Positions 26,569 to 57,862 of a DNA stretch of 60,643 nt are shown piece after piece. The stretch's first letter is position 1; each line of letters starts with the position of its first letter. The DNA comes from a virus (lineage: Duplodnaviria; Caudoviricetes). A program made the translations under genes and the position numbers. The stretch lies in IMG/VR virus record IMGVR_UViG_3300042261_000916, positions 1 to 60,643 of that record; one strand, 5' to 3'. The notes beneath the pieces were generated by a model. The model ran no database searches. It had not been told where the DNA came from and saw only the letters and a program-made list of their open reading frames with translations.

Positions 26569-29265
26569 ATGGCAAGTTGTCCTCTTTACAAAAGACTAAA
26601 AACTCGTGGCACTACGTTTTTAGCCTTTCCATCAGCCGCAAACGATATGAATGTTTATCCATTTCAGGAAGCATTCGATGTTCAGGTAACAAAATTCGTT
26701 TTATTAAATATTCCTAAAAGCACAGGAAAAGTATTAAATTTTACAAAAACAGATGTACTAGATACAACTAATGGTATAAATACATACAATTTCGATCCAA
26801 ATAGTTCATACCCTGTACTTTATTCGGATCAATTGGTAGAATCGATTAGAAATTACATAGCAAATCAGGACGCTTGTTTTAGAAATACAAGAATAACAGC
26901 TAATAAAGATTTTTATAATCCAATAGAAAGAAAAACACCAACTGAAGAAATATTCTGGAAATGGTGTAGATTACACAATATTATTGATTTTGAACCAGCT
27001 GAACATAAAATAGATTGGGATAAGAATTTGTCAGATTTTGACAATCAGAATGCATCTACGGTTACAAACCAAGATTATTTTAGAAAATATTTATGGAAAG
27101 AAAGAGAAGTTAGAGATTATTCTTGTGTAGTCAATGGAACATTAAATTATCCTGTTGTTACCATAAGTGAGTATGCCAAATTTAAAATTGGAGATTTTAT
27201 TACTTTCACTGGATCAACAGTGCCAGTAGAACTTACTGGAATTACTTGTGAGATCACAGATATAACTTTTCCAACTAATCAAACTATAATAACACTTCAA
27301 AATACACCGACTCCTTCTGCATTTGGAGATACAACTACAACATGTTTATTGAATTATCATCAATTAGTTCAATATATTGGCGAAATTCAGGCAACTAGTA
27401 AAGTACAATCTTCACAAAAAACATTTACTGAATTTACAGCAATGATTCCGGCTCACGCTGGAATGTCTCCTACAATATTATTTGAGACTCAAACTAATAC
27501 TAATTATTATCCAGGTCTTACTATTCCTATATTGGACGATCAAATTCAGGATGAAATTATAGGGGCAGAAAATTTAAGTTCTCCAATAAGATCTAATCCT
27601 AATGATTATCCAGGATCTTATTTTGGATATTTTGATACATATGATAAAACGTATAAAATGAGTAGCGGGGATCAACTTCGTTACTCCGGAGATTATTTTG
27701 GAGTACTTAGAGTTAATAATGTTGGATTGGCAGCTGATGATGCTTTTGAATTTTTAACAGATTTTAATTCTAATGATATTGATGGTGTAGCTTTAGATTT
27801 CAACCTTAAACATTATTATAAAGCACAAACCGCTCCTTCTAATATTACAAATTTTGATGATTTTGATTCACTATCTATTGATGGAAATCCGCCTGAAGAT
27901 TTTGATTTTAATGCTATTCTTTGGTACTACACAGTCAGAGATAATAACACCAATAAGACATACACAGATCTTTATGGAATAGAAATACTTGATAATCCAG
28001 ACAACGACTTTGGAACATCAAACGATAGAACCATTACATTAACAAAGAAATTAGTTACCAATAATTCACAAGATGGATATTCTTATATTTATAATTTGAA
28101 TCTCAATTTTGCTGTTGATAATGATATGGTTGCTTTGAAATATGATCCAACTTCTATTTATGATATTTTTGGATTTGATCTTTACAATAAAGTTATGAGT
28201 AATTATGTTTTATTGACAGATCAATTTCAAACTATAATAGGACAATTCTTATCTATAAATGAAGACATATTAAAATTAAAAAGTCTCCTATATTCACAAA
28301 CAGATATTAGTGATATTAAGAATAGATTGGCTAATATGGAGGATTTATTAAAATTATATCAAACCAATCAATTTGTGAATTCTGATACAGTGAAAATAAG
28401 TGTGGATTATACTAAAAATTATCCGGCTTTGAGTATGAATGCGGTAGCCGTTGATTATAGTGAAATATATACATTATACACAACAGATATAGCGAATTAT
28501 AATATAGCACATTCTGGAACAACAGGTTCTACAACATCAGCATCACAGCTAATTACAGTCCCGAACACTGGAAAGTTCTTGGTAAATATTTACAATAATC
28601 TTGTTGTAGAAAATAAAAATTTAACATTACAATTAGCGTTGAGTAGTGATCTTGCATTTAAGCAATCTGTTGATTTTATGATAAGACCTGATATAGGACA
28701 ATATTCTAACGAATTGAATATAAACGTAGAATTCAACGATGGTACATCAAATCCAAAAACAGAAAAATTATTAGTTGGCCCTGTTGATTTACCAGTTGAT
28801 GTTTCTATTTATAACGCCAATAATCCTACAGGATCTACATTTAATAACGCTTATTATATGAAATTAAGCACATTTATAGATAGATTAACAACAGGTTCAA
28901 CATGGGGAACTGGAACAACCATAGACTTCAAAGACGATTTATTCTATGTTGGTGACTGGATTTATATAGAAGATATGTATTTATTAAGTGGTAATACTTA
29001 TACAGATTGGTCTGGATTATATAAAATAGTAGGACTTGTTGGTATTCAAGCAATATTAGATTGGGATACTTCTAATTGGCAAATAAAATTAAGAGGCACT
29101 CCAAAAGCACATTACTATAAAGGAATGAAAATAAATATTCTTAGAGTCGAAGAATCTGATAATTCTGATATAAGTCATAGATATTTAATAACAAAAGACT
29201 TTATCCAGGAAGAAGAAGTTCAAGGAGTACAATATTCTCCTAATACATATGTAGGACCAGCTTAA
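26569..29265 (+). CDS. Large putative virion structural protein
   Basis: 898 aa, T/N/D/Y-rich, follows a late-type promoter; no specific family recognised. Confidence 0.6.
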   Translation: MASCPLYKRLKTRGTTFLAFPSAANDMNVYPFQEAFDVQVTKFVLLNIPKSTGKVLNFTKTDVLDTTNGINTYNFDPNSSYPVLYSDQLVESIRNYIANQDACFRNTRITANKDFYNPIERKTPTEEIFWKWCRLHNIIDFEPAEHKIDWDKNLSDFDNQNASTVTNQDYFRKYLWKEREVRDYSCVVNGTLNYPVVTISEYAKFKIGDFITFTGSTVPVELTGITCEITDITFPTNQTIITLQNTPTPSAFGDTTTTCLLNYHQLVQYIGEIQATSKVQSSQKTFTEFTAMIPAHAGMSPTILFETQTNTNYYPGLTIPILDDQIQDEIIGAENLSSPIRSNPNDYPGSYFGYFDTYDKTYKMSSGDQLRYSGDYFGVLRVNNVGLAADDAFEFLTDFNSNDIDGVALDFNLKHYYKAQTAPSNITNFDDFDSLSIDGNPPEDFDFNAILWYYTVRDNNTNKTYTDLYGIEILDNPDNDFGTSNDRTITLTKKLVTNNSQDGYSYIYNLNLNFAVDNDMVALKYDPTSIYDIFGFDLYNKVMSNYVLLTDQFQTIIGQFLSINEDILKLKSLLYSQTDISDIKNRLANMEDLLKLYQTNQFVNSDTVKISVDYTKNYPALSMNAVAVDYSEIYTLYTTDIANYNIAHSGTTGSTTSASQLITVPNTGKFLVNIYNNLVVENKNLTLQLALSSDLAFKQSVDFMIRPDIGQYSNELNINVEFNDGTSNPKTEKLLVGPVDLPVDVSIYNANNPTGSTFNNAYYMKLSTFIDRLTTGSTWGTGTTIDFKDDLFYVGDWIYIEDMYLLSGNTYTDWSGLYKIVGLVGIQAILDWDTSNWQIKLRGTPKAHYYKGMKINILRVEESDNSDISHRYLITKDFIQEEEVQGVQYSPNTYVGPA

Positions 29266-29365: not shown

Positions 29366-29394
29366 AGATCCCCTTTTTGGGGATCTTTTTTTTT
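29366..29394 (+). terminator. Rho-independent terminator
   Basis: AGATCCCC-ttttt-GGGGATCT followed by a T run. Confidence 0.85.
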
Positions 29395-29658
29395 AAAGTG
29401 TCAAAACTTCAACAAATTATATTGATATATAGAAGTGTAAAATTTTACATTTTTAAAATAATTTTACCTTGCGTACACACCTAACTCGTCCTGGGAACTT
29501 ATTAGTACAATGCATTCTGCGTAACCCTGAAACAGTGGGATAATTTAAACAAATAATGTTGATGTCATATAGAAAATTATGTATTTTACACCCCGTTGAG
29601 ATGCATAAAATGTTTACGGGGAATTTCAATCCTGAAATAAAAATTAATTTAAAAAATT

Positions 29659-30354
29659 ATGGAAACAAACCCTAATGTTAGTCCACTTTTTGTTGGATAT
29701 GTAACTAAAGCTACATTTGGAAATGCAGATGGCGTAATGTATCTTCATATAGCTGGGCACGATGAAACAATTCAAGAGCTGACTGTTGTTGCTGGCAATG
29801 CTCCATTTTCTGTACAATTAAAAATTGATGGTAATATAGTTAGAACAGTTAGTGATATACCAGCTTGTCAAAATCCAGCTTATATGAATATTGACCCAGC
29901 CGCCGGTCCTCTTTGTGAATTTAATTGTGTAATTGAGAATTTACCACCATCAGCTTATACAATCGTAATTACTGATGTTATAGGTAATGATTGTAGAGGG
30001 ATACAAAATGTGTTTGAAGTTCAACCACCTTACGCAACTCTTAATGGTACTGTTGATCCTAATGGTGTAAATACAACTGTTTGGTTCGATTTCGGAACAA
30101 CAACGACCTATGATAGAACAGCTCAATTTGGCATAGTTAACGGACATGATGTTGTTAATTGTTCCTTGAGATTGAGTTCTAAATCTAATTCCGGAGATCC
30201 AACAGAATATTTGGAACCTGGAACAACATATCATTATAGGATTAGAGCATCTAATCAATTTGGAGATTCTGCCGGCGAAGATATGACGTTTGTAACGCCA
30301 GTTTACGGTGGTCCTCCTACAGCAGTAACTTTACCAGCCACTAATATATCATAA
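29659..30354 (+). CDS. Ig/FN3-like virion surface protein
   Basis: ATLNGTVDPNG..T.VWF.FGTTT.Y, LEPGTTYHYRIRASN.FG...GED.TF.T. Confidence 0.8.
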   Translation: METNPNVSPLFVGYVTKATFGNADGVMYLHIAGHDETIQELTVVAGNAPFSVQLKIDGNIVRTVSDIPACQNPAYMNIDPAAGPLCEFNCVIENLPPSAYTIVITDVIGNDCRGIQNVFEVQPPYATLNGTVDPNGVNTTVWFDFGTTTTYDRTAQFGIVNGHDVVNCSLRLSSKSNSGDPTEYLEPGTTYHYRIRASNQFGDSAGEDMTFVTPVYGGPPTAVTLPATNIS

Positions 30355-30464
30355 TGAAAAAAATATTTTCATTCATATTATTAATTTTTAAGGCTATAAA
30401 AAAGTTATTATGTAGAAGAAAAAAACCGATTGTAAAGACACTACCGGCAACTAACATCTCTTAA
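30354..30464 (+). CDS. 36-aa peptide ending in the same TLPATNIS strand as the upstream gene
   Basis: Hand-translated MKKIFSFILLIFKAIKKLLCRRKKPIVKTLPATNIS; TAATG overlap with the upstream stop. Confidence 0.75.
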   Translation: MKKIFSFILLIFKAIKKLLCRRKKPIVKTLPATNIS

Positions 30465-30497
30465 AAAAAGACTCTCGTAAAAGAGAGTCTTTTTTTT
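30464..30497 (+). terminator. Rho-independent terminator
   Basis: AAAGACTCTC-gtaaaa-GAGAGTCTTT followed by a T run. Confidence 0.85.
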
Positions 30498-30523
30498 CTA
30501 TATATAAGTTAAAAAGAAAGATT

Positions 30524-31036
30524 ATGATTCTAGAGTTCAATAAATTCGTATCTAAACAGAAGATATACCTTGATATGGATGGTGTTTTGTGTAATTTTTT
30601 AAAAAAATTCGAAGATCTAACTGGTGAAGATTTTGAAGAATATGCTGATGAAAACGGGTGGAGTAAAACATGGAAATTAGTAGAAACTTTTGGTGTTGAA
30701 TTCTGGAGTGAACTAGAATGGATGAATGGTGGTAAAAAATTATGGAATTACTTAAAAAATTTAGATAATGTAGAAATTCTAACTGGATCACCAAGAGATA
30801 AAGTTGGTGAATATGCACAATTAGGTAAAGAAATATGGATAAAGAAAAACATTGGAAATATAAAAGTTAATCATATAGAAGGAAAATTAAAATACACCTA
30901 TGTCAAAAATAATGATATTCTAATAGACGATAGTAAAAGAAATTGTGCTTTATGGGACGCCGCTGGAGGAATATATATTCTACATAAAAATACAGATCTC
31001 ACAATAAAACAATTAAAAGAATTATTAGAAAACTAA
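30524..31036 (+). CDS. HAD-family 5'(3')-deoxyribonucleotidase
   Basis: YLDMDGVL, ILTGS, K..W, ILIDD...N...W..AGG. Confidence 0.9.
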   Translation: MILEFNKFVSKQKIYLDMDGVLCNFLKKFEDLTGEDFEEYADENGWSKTWKLVETFGVEFWSELEWMNGGKKLWNYLKNLDNVEILTGSPRDKVGEYAQLGKEIWIKKNIGNIKVNHIEGKLKYTYVKNNDILIDDSKRNCALWDAAGGIYILHKNTDLTIKQLKELLEN

Positions 31037-31109: not shown

Positions 31110-32267
31110 ATGAACAATATACAAACATACGAAGATTTTTTAAATGAAGGAATAATATCTGATAAATTCAAAGAGAAATTTAGCAAATTGTGGAATAATT
31201 TTCAATATAAAGAAGAAGTAACAAGAAAATTATATAATTTTCTTAGAGTTGGAAATATTCCTTTCACGCTCTTATATCTGGCTTTGTTATGTAATCATTA
31301 CTGGCCTAAATTTTTAGGAGCAGATATAAAACATTTTTTTGATCCAGCTTTTAACGGTATGATAATGGTAACATTGTATTTAATTTTTCAAAGTAATTAT
31401 GTTTTTAATATTTTAAGAGATAAAGTTATTAAAAAAGAATTGAATAGATTAAGAGAAAAATTCCACGATGGAAATATATTCTTAGTATTAGGAGATAAAT
31501 CCAATATAGATAAAGCTATAGCCAAACTTAAAGAAGATGGAATTATAAGTGATGAACACATTATTAATGAATTTGGTAGATGCATAATTGATTTTTCTGG
31601 TAGAGCCAATATAGATAAAGAGGAACATTATAATGTAGATCCTTATGGTGAAGAAGATTGGAATGATAATGGGGCTGAAGATGAAATGACCTTAACTGGA
31701 AGAAGAAATTTAGCACATATATTAGAACCTATATACGGAGTAAGATTCAGAAAAATAACAGACGAATTCGATTTATTTTCTAGAACATTATTAAGTTCTA
31801 GTGGAAGAGATAAAGAACAAGATCTCAGATATTATAATCAAGGAGTAGATGAATTTAGAAGAAGAAATGATCCAGCTCCAGCCCCAGATCCAAATTTAAA
31901 TTTAAATCATAATATTATTCCAGCTGGAGAACATTTTGAGGGCGAGGTAGTAAACATGAATGGAGCTAATTGGGAAGTCATGGGTGTTGATGAATTAAAT
32001 GGTGAAATGGTAGCTTTGATTAGAAGAATGCAACCGGGTGAAGAAATACCAGAGCAAGATCAGGGTATAGAAATACCAGAACCAGAAATTGATCAAAATG
32101 CACAACCGCCAGCACGTAATGCTGAATACTGGAAAAATATGGGATTTGACGACGTGGAAGATTTAGAAGATGGGAGAGTTGCTGTTAAAGTTAAAAAGCC
32201 AAAAAGAAAGATATTAAATTATAATAATTTTGTAGTGCCTGGATTTGATAAAAACTACCTGAAGTAA
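31110..32267 (+). CDS. CTS-leader protein with two hydrophobic helices and internal DPYGEEDW
   Basis: MNNIQTYEDFLNEG; IPFTLLYLALLC and GMIMVTLYLIF; tag at 31638. Confidence 0.75.
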   Translation: MNNIQTYEDFLNEGIISDKFKEKFSKLWNNFQYKEEVTRKLYNFLRVGNIPFTLLYLALLCNHYWPKFLGADIKHFFDPAFNGMIMVTLYLIFQSNYVFNILRDKVIKKELNRLREKFHDGNIFLVLGDKSNIDKAIAKLKEDGIISDEHIINEFGRCIIDFSGRANIDKEEHYNVDPYGEEDWNDNGAEDEMTLTGRRNLAHILEPIYGVRFRKITDEFDLFSRTLLSSSGRDKEQDLRYYNQGVDEFRRRNDPAPAPDPNLNLNHNIIPAGEHFEGEVVNMNGANWEVMGVDELNGEMVALIRRMQPGEEIPEQDQGIEIPEPEIDQNAQPPARNAEYWKNMGFDDVEDLEDGRVAVKVKKPKRKILNYNNFVVPGFDKNYLK

Positions 32268-32274
32268 AAGAAAG

Positions 32275-32856
32275 ATGATAGTAACATATAACGAATCTTT
32301 ATTTTTTAAATCTTTTGAAGAAAAACTTAAAAAGATAGATGATCTTCTAGTTAAATTAGAAATGGTTAGACAGATGGTTGGTGGTTATTATAAAACATGG
32401 GCTGAAGATAAAAATAGAAAAAATTTAAGAAAATTAAATAATAATTATGAAGGATATTTTGCTATAAGACAAACAATTATAAAAAAATTTATTAAAATAA
32501 TAAAAAATGATGATTTGAATCAAAATGATATTGATGAAGTTATTTTTAGATGGAAAGAATTTGAGAAAAATTTATCATATGGGTCTTATAATATTCAAAT
32601 GTTAGCAGGTTATCATTATGCTGAAATGATTATAGGATCTTTGAACAATTTTCTTAAAAGTTTATCAGATTTAAAAAAAGAATTTAATGTGGATTGTGAT
32701 ACAGAAGATAAATTTGTTTTATCTCCAATTGTGGATGATAAATATGTTCCATTAAGAAGATTAGTTCATAAAGTAAGAATGGAAAAAATGAAAAATTCAC
32801 ATATAAATGAAGATCCTTATGGAGAAGAAATTTGGGAAGATGAAGAGAATAAATAA
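32275..32856 (+). CDS. Helical protein with C-terminal DPYGEEIW; paralogue of the N-domain of 32840..33772
   Basis: KSFE..L..IDDL, VHK...H..(E/V)DPYGEE shared. Confidence 0.75.
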   Translation: MIVTYNESLFFKSFEEKLKKIDDLLVKLEMVRQMVGGYYKTWAEDKNRKNLRKLNNNYEGYFAIRQTIIKKFIKIIKNDDLNQNDIDEVIFRWKEFEKNLSYGSYNIQMLAGYHYAEMIIGSLNNFLKSLSDLKKEFNVDCDTEDKFVLSPIVDDKYVPLRRLVHKVRMEKMKNSHINEDPYGEEIWEDEENK

Positions 32857-33772
32857 ATATGATAAATTCAACGAGGGTTTGTTTACAAAAAATCCTAAAA
32901 AATCATTTGAGAGATATCTAGATGATATAGATGATTTATTTCTTTTATATGAAGAATCTAGTGGAAAATCCATTCGTAATAAATACGCCAATAAAGTTTA
33001 CGATAGTTCGGAAAGAGGCGACTATTTGGCAAAATCTGTAAATTATATGGCAAGAATAACCGACAAATTGGACGCTATCTTAATGGAACACGGTAGAAGA
33101 ATGGATCAAGAAATGATGGATAGGTTTGTTAAGAGATTCAATGCAGTTGGTCAGGCAATAGTTGGCACTGGATATATTCTAAAAAATTATAATGATTTAA
33201 ATAAAGTCAGAGATAATATGAACGCCATATTAAATTTACTTGATCATATTAGAAAATTTTATGACTTAAAAGTTGATGTTGACGAGAAAAAATATAACAA
33301 TCCTCTTGTATTCTGGAAACACGAAGGATTCTTTTATACTGTGCATAAATCATTCGCTGATAAAAAAGATAAAGAAGCAAAAGAGTTACACGCTAATGTA
33401 GATCCTTATGGTGAAGAAGATTGGGGGGATGAAGAACCAGCGAAAAACGAAGGAGTTAAATGGTATAGAGGAGGAGATTTAGGTGATGAGGAAAATATAG
33501 AAGTAGAAGAGCCTGATTTTATTACTAATTATTATTTCAGACAATTTTTAATAGAAAATGGGATATATGAAATTTATATAAAGTATTGTAGTCGTAAAGA
33601 TGATTTCAAATCGTATTTTACAAATGAAGCTGGAGATATAATAAATACAACTCTTTCGTGGGGGTCAACTCCTGTACCTGGTGGAGGAAGAGACATTGAG
33701 TTCTGGGAAAGAATGAGAAATAAATGGAGAGCTTTTTATAAAAAAAATAAAGATATAGTAGATGGCAAATAA
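32840..33772 (+). CDS. Two-module CTS-leader protein with internal DPYGEEDW
   Basis: MKRINKYDKFNEG; tag at 33401; C-module paralogous to 5571..6176. Confidence 0.75.
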   Translation: MKRINKYDKFNEGLFTKNPKKSFERYLDDIDDLFLLYEESSGKSIRNKYANKVYDSSERGDYLAKSVNYMARITDKLDAILMEHGRRMDQEMMDRFVKRFNAVGQAIVGTGYILKNYNDLNKVRDNMNAILNLLDHIRKFYDLKVDVDEKKYNNPLVFWKHEGFFYTVHKSFADKKDKEAKELHANVDPYGEEDWGDEEPAKNEGVKWYRGGDLGDEENIEVEEPDFITNYYFRQFLIENGIYEIYIKYCSRKDDFKSYFTNEAGDIINTTLSWGSTPVPGGGRDIEFWERMRNKWRAFYKKNKDIVDGK

Positions 33773-35617: not shown

Positions 35618-37453
35618 ATGCAAATCCTTGATTTTATAGAACTCCAATATGATAAACTCAGCGAACAAATAAAAAACTGGTTGCAGGCAAAATATTCTAA
35701 ATCAGATATAAATTTCAGCGAGGCTTCCCCATTTGGACAAATTCTAAAAGTAGATAAAGAATTATTTACTCATAATATAATTTATAATAAAAACTCTGTT
35801 AATCAAATTTCAATAGATTACGCCACAGATGAAAGAATGATTGATAATATTGCTCGTATTAGCGGACATAATCCAACACGTCCTATTTCAGCGACAGGAA
35901 CTCTTAATCTTAAATTAAAAACCGGAGTAGATATATCAAATCAGATAGGAAATTCTACTATTAAAATAAATAATAGAACGTTATTAAAAAATAAAACAAA
36001 TAATCTTTATTATAATATTGTATTTGGTACAGATTACGTTATTTATAATGTCACTCCAAATATGTCTATATCTGTTAATATTATACAAGGAAAATACGAA
36101 TCACAAACATATACGGGTACAGGATATAAAGATCAATCTTTTAGCGTTAATGTAGATGGAATTCAGAATATAGAAAATTTCAACTACGCTGTATTTTATA
36201 ATGGTCTTCTACTTGATGGTAAAGATAATTTAGTTGATATGTTACCTGATGAATTTGCATTTTATTCCAAGACTGGGTTTTTAGGTGGAGTTGATATTTA
36301 TTTTGGAACTGGGGACTTTGGATTTGTTCCAGCTATTGGTTCTACAATAGAAGTAAGATATTTGTTATCAGATGGTAAAGATGGAAATATATTAAATAAT
36401 AAAATTAACGATTTTCAATTCATTGATTCGGTTTATGATGGGAATGGTGATATATTAGCAATGGAAACTCTCTTCGATGTTTTTGTTGAGAATGATATAA
36501 ATTTTGGAGCAAATAAAGAAAATAAAGTTTTTACAAAAAATCTCATTCCCTTAGTATCAAGAAACTTTGTTTTGGCAACGCCAGATCAATTTATCTATCA
36601 GTTATCCAAACTTAACATGTTCTCTCTTATTAATGCTTATAATACTTTAGATGTTAATAACATAAATAATGATTCTTATATTAATCAATTTGTGACAGAT
36701 GTGTTTGGTCAAAATGTAACAAATAGGGATTTTATAATTTCTGAATTAAAAACTTATTTTCCTAATATTTATGACAATGTTATTTATCTTTATTTAATAC
36801 CCGATGTAAAGAATTATTTTCTATCGGATTATAATTATTTCACTATACCTTTTGATGCTTTTTATTTAGATCAAAATGAAAAAACTAAGGTATTAGATTA
36901 TCTTAAAATGTTGGGGACAATATCTATAACAACTAATGTTAAAATAGTTGATCCTGTAATATCAAGGTATGTAGTAAACATTTATGTGAGAAGATATAGT
37001 ACATATTTTGAAGATAATATTAGAAATCAAATAATAAATCTAGTATCTGATTATTTTATTAATAATAATAGATTCGATAGAGTTGTTAATTCAGAATTAA
37101 TAAAATTAATAAAGGAGCAAGTTCCAGGTGTAGATTCAGTTAATTTAGATTTTGTTTCTAAAAAGAATGAGGATTATCATAGGGATCATAATATATTATC
37201 ACAAAATTCAAATGTTACAAATACAAATGATACTACATTATTACCACCGACTGTTAATAACCCAAATAGATATGATCCTAATTTGATTCTAGGAATAGAT
37301 CCAGTTCAAGGAGATATTATAACTGAAAAAAATGAATATGCTGTTTTGAGAGGTGGTTGGTATGATAGAAATGGAATTTATTATAATGATGTTCCTATTT
37401 TGAATGGATTATCTACAATAAATATTGTATGGACAGGAGTGAGTGTAAAATAA
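35618..37453 (+). CDS. Baseplate wedge subunit (T4 gp6-like)
   Basis: A......IARISGHNPTRPISA.G, IYFG.GDFG..P..G..I.V.YL..DG..GN, RNFVLATP. Confidence 0.82.
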   Translation: MQILDFIELQYDKLSEQIKNWLQAKYSKSDINFSEASPFGQILKVDKELFTHNIIYNKNSVNQISIDYATDERMIDNIARISGHNPTRPISATGTLNLKLKTGVDISNQIGNSTIKINNRTLLKNKTNNLYYNIVFGTDYVIYNVTPNMSISVNIIQGKYESQTYTGTGYKDQSFSVNVDGIQNIENFNYAVFYNGLLLDGKDNLVDMLPDEFAFYSKTGFLGGVDIYFGTGDFGFVPAIGSTIEVRYLLSDGKDGNILNNKINDFQFIDSVYDGNGDILAMETLFDVFVENDINFGANKENKVFTKNLIPLVSRNFVLATPDQFIYQLSKLNMFSLINAYNTLDVNNINNDSYINQFVTDVFGQNVTNRDFIISELKTYFPNIYDNVIYLYLIPDVKNYFLSDYNYFTIPFDAFYLDQNEKTKVLDYLKMLGTISITTNVKIVDPVISRYVVNIYVRRYSTYFEDNIRNQIINLVSDYFINNNRFDRVVNSELIKLIKEQVPGVDSVNLDFVSKKNEDYHRDHNILSQNSNVTNTNDTTLLPPTVNNPNRYDPNLILGIDPVQGDIITEKNEYAVLRGGWYDRNGIYYNDVPILNGLSTINIVWTGVSVK

Positions 37454-53965: not shown

Positions 53966-56900
53966 ATGCCAATAAGTAACAAAGATTTAGGAAAGTACAA
54001 ACGTCCAGGCATATTTATTGAAGAAATTGATTTATCAATTATATCACGTCCAGTTCAGGAAGTGTTAATAAATTTAGTGCCAGGGTTTTCTAAGAAAGGA
54101 CCTTTTAATAAGCCTGTATTAGTAAATGACCCACAAACGTTTGAAGACATTTTTGGCCCAGTAGATAAGAATCTAGAAAACAAAGGGTCATACTTCCATA
54201 GAACTGTTGAGGATATGTTAACGGTAGGTCCAATTTGGGCTCTTAACTTATTAGCTACTGATCCAAATAGAGATACTCTCCAATGGGAATCTATTTCAGT
54301 CGCTGCTCAATACGATAATGGCCCAGTTAATACAGCCGGTTATGAATATTTCTTTAATCGTCAGGATTTCTGGGAAAGAGATGTAGAATCTTTCATGGAT
54401 ATAGTAGATGAAGCTTATGCAACTAATCCAAACCAACCAAATCCAGCTCACGATTTGTTCAGTATCACCAACATGGGAGATAAAACAGTCACAGTATGGA
54501 CATTCAAATCATCTATCACTGGATTTGACGTCTCAGCTGAGAGTTGGTATGGTGGAGCAGATAAAGTTCCTTTGTTTATGAATCCAAAAGATTATATATC
54601 AGATTATATGATTAGCGTACTATCTGTTGTTGGAGACTACACAGATTACGCGACTTTAAGCAAAGACCCATATTGGGGACAATATTTCAATACAAACGGT
54701 CTTCTTAAAGCACAAGTTCAAAATTTTGTAAGCGATAGATTAACAACTGTCAACGCTTATTATGATGTTTGTTTAATTCCAAACTTTAGAGATACATCAG
54801 GATTAGATATGTATATTAAGAATGTTATTAATTCAAATACAGACAAGACAGGATTATTCTGTTATTATAATGAAGACGTTCTCCTTAACGCAGATTTCTA
54901 TAAAGGAAATATTGATACAATTGGTCAAACACTGGTTGTAACAGAAGACCCTTTGAATGATATTTACGAGAAGAAGAATATCAATTTCATGTCTTACAAA
55001 ACAAATATTGGTGAAAATATAACATATACCGAGCAACTATTAGACGACGTTGGAAATCCATTTGGTAACTATGGGGCAGATTTATCTGTTGCTTATTATG
55101 GCGATAGAACAGGTATTAATACAAATTGGTACACAAATATAGCACCAACAACAGGAAGCACATATTCGTATGTTATTTCTTCGGCTTCAGCCACAAACAT
55201 AGTTTTAACTGATGTTACAGGTATTGAAGCAAATGATGTTGTTTATTTTAGCAACTCATTTGGGCCTGTTGATAGTGCAACTCCATATTATGTATTAACA
55301 GCTACAGTAGCTACATCTGGTATTACAGTTTCTACAACGAAGGGTGGACCTACTCTTGGTGGATTTACATCACCAACTAGACCAACTTTTGTTTATAGTT
55401 TGAAACAAAAATACTATGATGGAATTGGCGACGGTCTTGGTAATTTCTTCACTTATAATATTGGAGAACAATATATTCTAACGAATAATGGTAGTTATTC
55501 TCCACTATTCTTTGAGCCTCTTGTTATTAGCAACAGTGCTCAAACAACGGGATATAGTAGATATGATGTTGTATATTTAAGTACAGATAATACTACAATT
55601 CACACAGTTAAGGGAAATCAGGTTATTGGAACAACTCCAAGCAAACCAAATTTCTTATTGAGTAATGCCAATACAATAATTCTTGGATATGTTAAACTAC
55701 AATACACTTTAGTAGCAAGCGTTACACCAACACTAACAATGACATGGTATCCAACTACAGTAAATTACTATAATGTTAGTGGTAGTTATAAAGTTTTAGC
55801 TCCAACTACTGAAGTAACAGCAGTTTCTGGAGTTACAACAGGTGGTGTTAAATATCTTGATTTATATTTTGTTGGAACATCAGGTTCAACTGATTATACA
55901 AATTATGATAAATTGAGGAGAAATAAAATATTTACAGAAATTTATACTGCGGCTTTAACTGGTAAATCAGTTATTATAAACAGAGTAGATGGTACTAAAT
56001 ATTCAATTAATGCTACTGTATATGAACCGACCGCTACAAAAGATGGTCATATGATTATATTCTTTGATACATTAGGTAGCACAAATCCATTCGAATATTA
56101 TAATGTATCAACTGGCGGATTCTTAATTTACTACATAGACTATGAACTTGTTCTAGTTCCATCAACAACAAATCTTGAATATTTAATAACAACAAAGAAA
56201 GAAGTATCTGATCTTCCAAATAATTATGGTATAGTTGCTAAATATTCTACATTATATTTGGATTACTACAATGGTAATTTAAATGATGGAGATTATATTT
56301 TCTTCAATAATGATAGTGGACAAACTACTAGAATATATTTGAAAATGTGGTTAGATATAGATAAGAATTTGACCATAGGATTCTCAAGTGGTCCAGAAAC
56401 ACAACCAGATACAATTTTATCACAAGTTGACATCAATTATAATTCTGAACTTATTGTTTATTCCGATACTGGTAGTTATAAACAGACATTAGAAATCGAT
56501 AATACAAGTTATATTACGGATTTCACCAATGTAACGTATGTCTATGTCGATAAGACAAGATATTCCGAAGTAACTAAGGGCTGGTACTTAGACGCATATT
56601 ATGATACTTCATATTATGATGCACCAGGCGAAGGTTATATTTTAGGAGCAGTTCCTAGAAAATTAGTTCGTATCACAAGCACAGTTATAGATACTGTAGA
56701 TCCAACTAAAAAAATCTTATACGCTGATGGCCCTATTAGAATATTATCTAATATAAGTGGTTCAACAACTGATTATTATACAACAGCTAGAATGTCAATT
56801 GATAATTATGTTACTGAATATAATGGTTTAGCTATGAAGCCTTTCGTAGTAAGTCCAGAATCTATTCCTAATGGAACAGATGCTAGATTAGATACAATCA

Positions 56901-57862
56901 TGTCTGTTATGGGTAAGAATACAAATCTTGCAAAGGGTTTAGCCAATAAGAATAGAATTACTTGGAGATATTTAATTGATTCTTTCGGTTTAGGTTTAAC
57001 TCACAACTCAAAACAAGAATTTGTTGATGTTTGCGGTATGAAACTTAACTGTCTTGGTTTCATTAATATGCCAAGTGCAAGACAATTCAAAACATCAATA
57101 AATCCAAGTTTCACTAACGATGATAGAACTCTTAATACAGAATATATCAAAGAAGGTGGAAATCCAGATAAGAATCCAATATTTACATATTCGTTCGGAG
57201 ATGGTAAGGGTATGAGTTGTGTTGGTTACTTCTTCCCATACATCAAAGATGTAAATGATTCAAGTAAATTTATTCCACCAGCAGCAAAAGTTGCTAAAGC
57301 TTATATGGCAAAATTTACCGGTGGATTAGGAAATGCTTATCCATGGCAAATCATAGCAGGTCCACAATTCTCATTAATGGGTGAAGTTGCTGCTACAGAA
57401 ATCAGATTTACAAATGAAGATCTCGAAAACATGTACGCGATGGGAGCAAATCCAATTGTTTACTCTCTCAATAGAGGATATAATATCAATTCAGAGAACT
57501 CAGCTCAGGTTTACCCACTAAGTTCATTGAGTTATATTCACTCAAGAGAAGTTTTAATCGAACTTGAAAATAGACTTTATGATATGTTACTTAACTATCA
57601 CTGGAGATTTAATACTCCTGAAATTAGAGCTGAAATCAAGTTTAGAGCAGATCAAATTTGTAAAGAAATGTTAGATTCTAACGCACTCTATGATTTCAAA
57701 AATGTTTGCGACAAGACAAATAACACCGATTACATCATAGATCTACAAATGGGAGTACTTGATACATATATCGAAATCATTAAGGGTATGGGTATCATCG
57801 TAAATAACATCACAATCCTTAAAAAAGGAACAATAGCATCTGGTGGTTTCTTACCAGCATAA
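53966..57862 (+). CDS. Contractile tail sheath protein (T4 gp18-like)
   Basis: RPGIFIEEID.S, GFSKKGP.N.P, C-terminal LSYIH.RE.LI.LE...FN....R..I, CD..NNT..IID. Confidence 0.93.
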   Translation: MPISNKDLGKYKRPGIFIEEIDLSIISRPVQEVLINLVPGFSKKGPFNKPVLVNDPQTFEDIFGPVDKNLENKGSYFHRTVEDMLTVGPIWALNLLATDPNRDTLQWESISVAAQYDNGPVNTAGYEYFFNRQDFWERDVESFMDIVDEAYATNPNQPNPAHDLFSITNMGDKTVTVWTFKSSITGFDVSAESWYGGADKVPLFMNPKDYISDYMISVLSVVGDYTDYATLSKDPYWGQYFNTNGLLKAQVQNFVSDRLTTVNAYYDVCLIPNFRDTSGLDMYIKNVINSNTDKTGLFCYYNEDVLLNADFYKGNIDTIGQTLVVTEDPLNDIYEKKNINFMSYKTNIGENITYTEQLLDDVGNPFGNYGADLSVAYYGDRTGINTNWYTNIAPTTGSTYSYVISSASATNIVLTDVTGIEANDVVYFSNSFGPVDSATPYYVLTATVATSGITVSTTKGGPTLGGFTSPTRPTFVYSLKQKYYDGIGDGLGNFFTYNIGEQYILTNNGSYSPLFFEPLVISNSAQTTGYSRYDVVYLSTDNTTIHTVKGNQVIGTTPSKPNFLLSNANTIILGYVKLQYTLVASVTPTLTMTWYPTTVNYYNVSGSYKVLAPTTEVTAVSGVTTGGVKYLDLYFVGTSGSTDYTNYDKLRRNKIFTEIYTAALTGKSVIINRVDGTKYSINATVYEPTATKDGHMIIFFDTLGSTNPFEYYNVSTGGFLIYYIDYELVLVPSTTNLEYLITTKKEVSDLPNNYGIVAKYSTLYLDYYNGNLNDGDYIFFNNDSGQTTRIYLKMWLDIDKNLTIGFSSGPETQPDTILSQVDINYNSELIVYSDTGSYKQTLEIDNTSYITDFTNVTYVYVDKTRYSEVTKGWYLDAYYDTSYYDAPGEGYILGAVPRKLVRITSTVIDTVDPTKKILYADGPIRILSNISGSTTDYYTTARMSIDNYVTEYNGLAMKPFVVSPESIPNGTDARLDTIMSVMGKNTNLAKGLANKNRITWRYLIDSFGLGLTHNSKQEFVDVCGMKLNCLGFINMPSARQFKTSINPSFTNDDRTLNTEYIKEGGNPDKNPIFTYSFGDGKGMSCVGYFFPYIKDVNDSSKFIPPAAKVAKAYMAKFTGGLGNAYPWQIIAGPQFSLMGEVAATEIRFTNEDLENMYAMGANPIVYSLNRGYNINSENSAQVYPLSSLSYIHSREVLIELENRLYDMLLNYHWRFNTPEIRAEIKFRADQICKEMLDSNALYDFKNVCDKTNNTDYIIDLQMGVLDTYIEIIKGMGIIVNNITILKKGTIASGGFLPA

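Follow-up and report, generated by a model that had tools for sequence, protein, structure and literature searches.

Why should a phage protein end in a strand that, in tandem-repeat proteins of the same type, opens the next domain, and why should that strand be encoded once more directly behind the stop codon? The question is raised by two overlapping reading frames in IMG/VR virus record IMGVR_UViG_3300042261_000916, a stretch of 60,643 bases with 29% G+C that was analyzed as a whole and is called the window here. The first, open reading frame (ORF) 1, occupies 29659..30354 on the plus strand (stop codon TAA at 30352..30354) and encodes 231 amino acids (aa) in two beta-sandwich domains and a C-terminal tail. 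The second, ORF2 (30354..30464, plus strand), is a candidate for translation only and would encode 36 aa, of which the first 24 are rich in K, I, F and L. We consider it probable that the fibronectin type III (FN3)-like domain of ORF1 accepts the tail of another copy as its strand A, the second copy of the tail possibly being a minor capping product. Four lines of in-silico evidence, independent of each other, support the donor-strand reading.

The tail of ORF1 and its counterpart in tandem repeats

ORF1 ends in ...PPTAVTLPATNIS and ORF2 in KPIVKTLPATNIS. The peptide TLPATNIS closes both frames, as a sequence-only reading of the window had noticed, and 7 of its 8 codons differ, all of them synonymously (act tta cca gcc act aat ata tca in ORF1; aca cta ccg gca act aac atc tct in ORF2). 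In ORF1 it forms the core (residues 224-231, 30328..30351) of the linker and donor strand, which together comprise residues 213-231 (30295..30351, plus strand). The second motif copy lies at 30423..30461 on the same strand, with TLPATNIS at 30438..30461; it matches the consensus tail of the family and is unusual in its codons that end in G or C. When all 60,643 bases were translated in six frames, TLPATN was found at these two sites only; the chance expectation for a given 8-mer is about 5e-6. The ATG of ORF2 overlaps the stop codon of ORF1 (TAATG), which places ORF2 in the -1 frame relative to ORF1. By exact look-up ORF2 is absent, as a called gene, from the public protein collection. Two other explanations of the arrangement were rejected. 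A -1 frameshift that fuses the two frames is contradicted by a TAA at 30342..30344 in the -1 frame and by the lack of a slippery heptamer in the 9 bases before the stop (an A7 run is located past the ORF1 stop). A sortase signal of the LPXTG type is contradicted by the position of LPATN, 3 residues from the C-terminus in both ORFs, and by the absence of a hydrophobic segment and a basic tail.

The sequence-only reading had further stated that in FN3-like repeats of this type a segment P.V.T..AT.I comes just before the strand ATLNG, and that the ORF1 domain starts without it. Both statements were borne out. The segment directly precedes ATLNG in P0034 and in the repeat consensus (PTxTTxPATNITxxxATLNGxVNPNG), and the FN3-like part of ORF1 begins with ...PPYATLNGTVDPNG, with no such segment before it. 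At E <= 1e-3, a profile of the ORF1 family matched 43,932 of 1.84 billion representative proteins. The best 150 of these matches are giant proteins with 6-41 repeat stretches each; their best stretch begins at profile positions 111-128 in 142/150 and ends at positions 219-226 of 226 in 139/150, i.e. it extends through the tail. The canonical order is G strand, linker G-PP, P.V.T.PATNIT and ATLNG, and the last domain stops right after strand G. The spacing between G strand and motif in ORF1 (PP, six residues, ATNI) equals the covalent spacing between repeats. Homology with these canonical tandem proteins (giant surface proteins; Pfam Pur_ac_phosph_N or fn3-like) covers strands B through G, the linker and strand A. 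There, the repeats are covalently joined and each domain owns its strand A, whereas ORF1 is homologous to a single ATLNG-type repeat unit, shifted by one strand, with the strand after rather than before it. Judged by homology, the tail of ORF1 corresponds to strand A of a 'next' FN3-like repeat together with the linker before it. The domain would then be a canonical 'ATLNG...PNG' repeat one strand out of register, running from B to G, through the linker and into strand A of a repeat that is absent.

The AlphaFold2 monomer model of ORF1, built from 29 alignment rows, has a mean predicted local distance difference test (pLDDT) score of 83.0 and a predicted template modeling score of 0.53. It contains an N-terminal immunoglobulin (Ig)-like beta-sandwich at residues 7-118 (29677..30012, plus strand; strands 7-15 to 111-118, with pLDDT blocks of 80-96) and an FN3-like domain with strands B to G at residues 126-212 (30034..30294, plus strand). 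The first strand of the FN3-like domain is 126-132 (ATLNGTV), with no strand before it, and residues 213-231 have no secondary structure (pLDDT 55-68). A complete FN3 fold without the tail would have contradicted the sequence-only reading; the modeled monomer does not form one, and its FN3 domain lacks strand A in cis. As a control, the canonical two-repeat protein P0034 was modeled from a 10-row alignment (pLDDT 87.8). In this model the segments homologous to the tail, 26-33 and 125-132 as mapped by counting residues in its sequence, form strands that immediately precede the ATLNG strands, 40-47 and 138-146. The subunit fold minus one strand leaves, in the ORF1 model, a groove.

Comparison with the PDB by Foldseek gave 109 matches at E <= 0.001. 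The best were tandem FN3 pairs (neogenin FN5-6, E 2.4e-5), and the FN3 part of the lambda tail-tip protein was among the matches; the template modeling scores are low (0.19-0.32), as expected when the orientation of two domains differs. By structure comparison ORF1 is a beta-sandwich of FN3/Ig topology in which the seven strands A to G are not found in one segment. A sequence search of the PDB returned generic F-strand-motif matches only, to titin FN3 domains, and Pfam Pur_ac_phosph_N remained below threshold (17.4 bits against 30). No match above threshold was found for ORF1 in Pfam or PHROGs; a 'minor tail protein' PHROG reached E 0.0038, which is below threshold.

About 30 proteins encoded on huge-phage contigs make up the family to which ORF1 belongs. 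When 5.8 billion proteins were searched with ORF1, 53 matched at E <= 0.001, and 29 relatives besides the window protein cover at least 83% of ORF1 (212-286 aa, 33-80% identity), the closest being P0002-P0007 with 73-80% identity. The motif lies 0-2 residues from the C-terminus in 30/30 proteins, i.e. in the 29 relatives and the window protein. T224, L225, P226 and T228 are each present in at least 90% of the 29 aligned rows, from which P0006, with its N-terminal extension, was omitted, and the tail is among the best-conserved stretches of this alignment. Many members have a linker 2 residues shorter than that of the window protein. A scan of viral contigs with the single protein found no ORF1 relative, and a scan with the alignment found 2 full-length relatives only. 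One further predicted protein is composite: in P0036 (169 aa, on a 127-kb contig) an N-terminal part resembling an HNH nuclease is followed by the final ~65 residues of a member of the ORF1 family, including the tail ...TLLATNIG, which may reflect a homing endonuclease inserted in or beside the gene.

Proposed strand donation between copies of ORF1

Two copies of ORF1 were modeled together with ESMFold2, using the 29-row alignment made for this analysis and 3 controls. The interaction score ipSAE (interaction prediction score from aligned errors) was 0.52, 0.50 and 0.56 in three runs (median 0.52), while the best of the 3 controls scored 0.00. Contact agreement between runs was at least 96% and the pLDDT of the partner at least 84. 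The interface is formed by residues 217-231 of copy 1 and residues 19-20, 123-137, 139, 141, 171, 193-199, 201-209 and 211-214 of copy 2, with an acceptor groove made of residues 123-137, 193-199 and 201-214. It is unidirectional, and the pairs 223:132, 225:130 and 224:129 place the tail antiparallel to strand B, in the position of strand A; L225 contacts residue 195 of strand F. A homo-oligomer model, which the sequence-only reading had proposed as a check, shows the tail inserted in trans beside strand B, in one direction. We read this result as a fit of the tail to the strand-A position of another copy; binding itself is not implied by it.

Covariation was studied in 40 rows, made up of 11 locus translations and 29 database proteins and including some near-identical pairs. 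Raw mutual information between tail and body is dominated by variable columns and by phylogeny, and a hand-checked triple, 227/128/211, was used alone. Proline occupies position 227 in 4/40 rows (P0010, P0012, P0013 and P0014), and these 4 rows alone have Met at 128 in strand B and Met or Leu at 211 in strand G; the remaining 36/36 rows have Ala 227, Leu 128 and Phe 211. In a FastTree tree with midpoint root and without support values, P0010 stands next to P0008 and L028, which have Ala, Leu and Phe, and P0012-14 form a separate clade; two independent changes of the triple are most parsimonious. In the antiparallel register of the model, where residue numbers sum to 355, residue 227 lies opposite 128. 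It contacts residues 211 and 126-129 in the two-copy model, and 227:211 is among the most confident pairs. The covariation argues for physical contact of the tail with the groove of ORF1 itself. A relative with a complete genome of 735,411 bp has one ORF1 match at E <= 0.01 (4 candidates scored) and one TLPATN-coding site, and with this single match it lacks a paralogous acceptor; the window has ORF1 alone.

The termini of an FN3 domain lie at opposite poles. Because of this, and because the linker is as long as is normal between repeats, the tail should leave its own domain. It would enter the strand-A-less groove of another ORF1 molecule from below, run antiparallel to strand B and cover the core beside strands F and G. 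Since the contact is one-way, every molecule would retain an unused tail and an open groove, and chains, or rings that close on themselves, could result in imitation of a tandem FN3 rod. The FN3 domains would stack as a rod from which the N-terminal Ig-like domains project sideways, and assembly would need neither a chaperone nor a protease. The homology of the tail, its conservation, the strand missing from the models and the covariation are observed. The claim that each subunit donates its tail to the next agrees with the two-copy model and is inferred, as would be any higher-order assembly such as the pilus-like fiber that was also proposed.

Donation in trans may also be real and yet produce small closed assemblies, for instance a short tether, or rings centered on one of the symmetry axes of capsid or tail. 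The two-copy model cannot separate a ring from a chain, phage accessory proteins usually obey the 3-, 5- or 6-fold symmetry of the particle, and the lack of a capping peptide in 6/11 loci (see below) is what rings would predict. The modeled contact is unidirectional and appears to stack the domains as in a linear tandem array, with which rings are still compatible. We regard closed assemblies as possible, though rather unlikely.

Several points weigh against donation in trans altogether. All support for it is computational. Pfam fn3 matches ORF1 below threshold (13.4 bits against a cut-off of 25 bits, E 0.093). The calibration counts of the ipSAE mark, which was reached by 20/30 proteins solved as pairs of one chain and by 1/23 solved as single chains, apply only roughly to a prediction from an alignment made for this analysis. 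The complex predictor may merely complete a familiar FN3 fold. Finally, the covariation of 227, 128 and 211 demands contact only and fits a tail that folds back in cis equally well. In that case ORF1 would be a circularly permuted monomer, an ordinary two-domain decoration or adhesin protein, and by estimate the linker of the window clade, in which 9 residues separate TP from TLPATN, might be just long enough to cross a domain. Against this stand residues 213-231, which have no structure in the monomer model, and the linker, whose length and sequence (G-PP, 6 residues, ATNI) are those of covalent repeats in which the strand belongs to the next domain. The linker is shorter still, by 2 residues, in many family members, and in the two-copy model, whose contacts agree to 96% between runs, the tail lies in trans. 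We judge the permuted monomer improbable. Least probable is that the tail, like many conserved C-terminal peptides, is a docking tag that plugs into another virion or host protein and attaches ORF1 as a monomer. The baseplate wedge and tail sheath genes of the region and an unannotated 898-aa neighbor, syntenic in LR756501.1, speak for such a tag. Against it, the tail co-varies with residues 128 and 211 of ORF1 itself, strand A is missing from its own domain, and the 735,411-bp relative has no other protein of its FN3 type at E <= 0.01.

The second copy of the motif

Eleven distinct loci with DNA were compared: the window, L001, L002 (= L030), L003 (= L032), L031, L028, L029, L033, L034, L036 and L182; L035 has the same tail context as L034. 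Synteny in relatives, which had been suggested as a check on the pairing of protein and peptide, gave a divided answer. A second copy is present in 5/11 loci, in each case bounded by the ORF1 stop and the terminator, and absent in the other 6/11. In the window the stop overlaps the ATG and the copy, 36 aa ending in ...KPIVKTLPATNIS, lies in the -1 frame. In the other four loci it is in frame. L001 and L002 have the stop TGA followed by PPLVKTLPAKL and another TGA; L003 has TGA ATG and the copy MPIVKTLPATNIKGI; L031 has TGA ATG and MPIVKTLPATI, with a 1-base deletion. The idea that a hydrophobic and basic N-terminus makes the peptide an anchor is weakened by this comparison, since such an N-terminus exists in the window only and the other four loci have 11-15 codons directly after the stop; in ORF2 itself the hydrophobic run has 9 residues only. 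A degenerate DNA pattern for P.VKTLPA was found in 74 stretches of viral contigs, of which 2/74 lie behind an ORF1 homolog, both already among the known loci.

A product made from the second copy is favored by its position and by the kind of changes it has undergone. An ATG overlaps or abuts the ORF1 stop in the window, L003 and L031. In the window the chance of TG after TAA is 0.054, and that of an open 23-codon spacer in the right frame is 0.04-0.12. In a comparison of the window with L003, 6/24 bases of the core P[IL]VKTLPA are different, 6/6 of them synonymously (neutral simulation, P = 7.5e-5). For L001 and L003 the figure is 7/24 bases, with 5 synonymous differences and one Ile/Leu change (P = 0.0018). 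The junction one codon past the TGA, in frame, is common to L001/L002 and L003/L031, the first 10 codons are without insertions or deletions, and this junction has been kept despite a synonymous divergence (dS) of 1.18 in ORF1.

These observations count against the main alternative, that the second copy is an untranslated leftover, either the 3' end of an old allele or a partial duplication, caught between a new stop and the old terminator. Its similarity to the tail would then be kept by recency or gene conversion and no peptide role would be needed. Much of the comparison points this way and weighs against a capping product. The copy is missing from L028, L029, L033, L034, L036 and L182, and L028 is the closest relative with DNA (64% identity). 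Its C-terminal end varies (...ATNIS, ...ATNIKGI, ...ATI, ...AKL), L031 carries the 1-base deletion, and an ATG is lacking in L001 and L002. In the lineages of L001 and L003 the DNA of copy 2 is nearest to copy 1 of the same genome (19-21/24 bases, against 17/24 to copy 2 of the other lineage), so that gene conversion or separate duplications could mimic purifying selection without translation. Copy 2 of the window is nearest to copy 1 of L036 (19/24 bases), and 5/12 of its codons end in G or C (G+C at third codon positions 0.42, against 0.16 in ORF1, P = 0.03), which would suggest a foreign origin. The HNH-nuclease fusion in P0036 hints at homing-driven recombination at the ORF1 gene, and ORF2 has never been called as a gene. 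We put the leftover at slightly below an even chance, and we give about even odds that the second copy is translated and functional.

If a capping product exists, it would most likely be scarce, and it would arise by re-initiation at the ATG that overlaps or adjoins the stop or, in the relatives, by read-through of TGA. A donor strand without an acceptor domain, as in ORF2 and the short frames of the relatives, would cap open grooves, limit chain length or compete with elongation, whereas a double tail made by read-through could instead join two acceptors. In L001 and L002, with TGA read as sense, the frame continues past the second TGA into the terminator. An association between TGA stops and second copies was considered and dropped: 4/4 in-frame loci fit it but represent one clade, and L029 has TGA without a second copy. 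We hold it unlikely that the full scheme applies, in which single FN3 domains, threaded by a strand moved from the front of the repeat to its back, self-assemble into a rod, and a free donor-strand micro-peptide, or a read-through double tail, is produced at a low fixed ratio by translational coupling, caps the open groove and in this way sets the chain length. Such a product would be a genetically minimal terminator subunit without known counterpart.

Some further observations concern this short region. The segment 30306..30450 has a predicted, at most suggestive long-range RNA pairing between the codons for ORF1 residues ~216-228 and the 3' half of ORF2, which encloses the stop/start overlap (z = -2.78; 1/200 shuffles folds as well or better) and could gate re-initiation. 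Over the 36 bases past the ORF1 stop, L001 and L002 are identical in DNA, and the proportion of synonymous differences in their ORF1 genes is 0.36. Their second copy thus varies less than synonymous sites do, a hint of constraint on the nucleotides themselves or of a recent exchange. A DNA run from another study is identical to the window over 29400..30446 and 30438..30600, and for this reason offers no variation usable to test coding constraint in ORF2. Among the sequencing runs listed for the stretch none is of RNA, and one RNA run that was compared yielded 0 records. The X2 and X3 contigs, from two runs, begin or end within the second motif copy (30446, 30439 and 30438), and the X1 contig passes through; the breaks at 30438..30446 may represent a branch of the assembly graph caused by strain variation or by the repeat.

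Genomic setting, known systems and significance

Terminators flank the pair on both sides, as had been stated before. The upstream intrinsic terminator (29366..29395, plus strand), with a hairpin stem at 29366..29386 followed by a T-run, ends the preceding gene for the 898-aa protein. The downstream one (30463..30497, plus strand) begins within the stop codon of ORF2 and has a 14-bp hairpin, with a G+C core at 30470..30476 / 30483..30489, followed by a U-run. Between the upstream terminator and ORF1 lies a leader or promoter region of ~260 nt (29396..29658, plus strand). This leader and those of L001 (2830..3000) and L003 (3806..4000) contain short, hairpin-like stretches richer in G+C than the 29% of the genome; their consensus fold is weak, with 7 weakly supported pairs, and an Rfam scan of the window gave 0 matches.

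The stretch is present in two freshwater or lake metagenome studies, either of which may be where this DNA was sampled. A baseplate wedge protein gene (35618..37453) and a tail sheath gene encoding 1298 aa (53966..57862) are found in the window. The tail sheath PHROG matches residues 941-1283 only of the latter, a very long sheath protein with ~900 residues in extra N-terminal domains. The 898-aa ORF immediately upstream of the ORF1 unit (26569..29265) has no match in Pfam or PHROGs; it lies within the stretch that matches LR756501.1 at 77% DNA identity and may encode a structural partner. A gene for a 5'-deoxyribonucleotidase-like protein (NT5C, Pfam E 2.5e-7; PHROG 2643, E 4.6e-26) at 30524..31036 separates ORF2 from a gene with the motif DPYGEEDW. 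In L001 such a DPYGEEDW gene follows ~70 bases past the ORF1 terminator, so that the NT5C gene is an insertion/deletion difference from the window. Three consecutive ORFs (31110..32267, 32275..32856 and 32807..33772; 385, 193 and 321 aa) share the acidic motif (N/E)-(V/E)-DPYGEE-(D/I)-W. Neither Pfam nor PHROGs assigns them to a family, the motif also occurs in the 414-aa gene after the ORF1 homolog of L001, and they form a local paralog family.

In the phage collection, the uncultured-phage records LR756501.1 and LR756503.1 (735,411 bases each) match 40% of a 7.5-kb query at 77% identity, LR756502.1 (642,428 bases) matches 1% of the same query, and no further relatives were found in that collection. 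PMC7162821 describes a 735-kb phage genome, assigns the largest genomes there to the 'Mahaphage' clade and predicts Bacteroidetes as hosts of related huge phages. ORF1 would be a structural-type protein of a huge Mahaphage-related myophage, with an N-terminal Ig-like and an FN3-like domain.

Donor-strand assembly of the ORF1 type would be a variation on a known assembly mechanism. By analogy, the type V pili of Bacteroidota (FimA/Mfa1) appear closest in mechanism to what is proposed here. According to PMC13655056, a C-terminal donor strand fills the groove of a removed N-terminal strand in these pili, and some accessory subunits are without donor strands. Type V pilins share with the assembly proposed for ORF1 a C-terminal donor strand, a missing N-terminal strand and non-covalent head-to-tail contact, which for ORF1 is seen in the model. 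The differences are several. Type V pilins depend in that account on lipoprotein export and a protease, whereas the N-terminus of ORF1, METNPNVSPLFVGYV, has neither a hydrophobic signal region nor a Cys, the strand is never encoded N-terminal of the domain and there is no protease step. The putative acceptor is a single FN3-like domain in ORF1, and a two-domain protein of another fold in the type V pilins described. The donor strand is antiparallel in the ORF1 model, whereas betaC of Mfa1 is said in PMC13655056 to become parallel. Unlike type V pili, ORF1 is phage-encoded and presumably assembles inside the cell. No similarity in sequence to pilin families was detected for ORF1, which has no match to them in Pfam or PHROGs.

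In chaperone-usher pili the subunits lack their last strand, receive it from an N-terminal extension of a neighbor and require both an usher and a periplasmic chaperone. ORF1 differs in that the putative donor is C-terminal and the missing strand is the first; no chaperone-like gene was seen beside it with Pfam and PHROGs. PMC13655056 states that in chaperone-usher pili a strand of the neighbor completes an incomplete Ig-like fold in antiparallel orientation. Archaeal threads, Pyrodictium cannulae and TasA of Bacillus are also donor-strand polymers of beta-sandwich proteins, the cannulae being chaperone-free. These are proteins that cells secrete for a matrix or pilus, their folds and strands are different, and none of them is a phage protein or a register-shifted FN3 domain. 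For the second copy, minor forms made in phages by leaky stops or coupled re-initiation offer a comparison, as they are rarer products from the 3' end of a structural gene and 4/4 in-frame copies follow TGA (in one clade, and as candidates here). The A1 read-through protein of Qbeta is such a minor phage form, made by a leaky stop.

A search of the literature on donor strands combined with phage terms found no phage particle protein; what it returned concerned biofilm matrix and Caf1 or was unrelated. If the donor-strand reading is true, the donor-strand assemblies, so far known as cellular pili and matrix fibers, would gain in ORF1 a phage-encoded member that can do without chaperone and protease. 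It would also reveal a simple evolutionary route by which a covalent tandem repeat becomes a non-covalent polymer through a register cut of one strand. The unit is small (~110 residues plus a 13-residue tail) and a possible building block for designed protein chains. Finally, the recurrent second copy of the tail would provide a clean case in which to ask whether micro-ORFs or leaky stops regulate the stoichiometry of assembly in huge phages.

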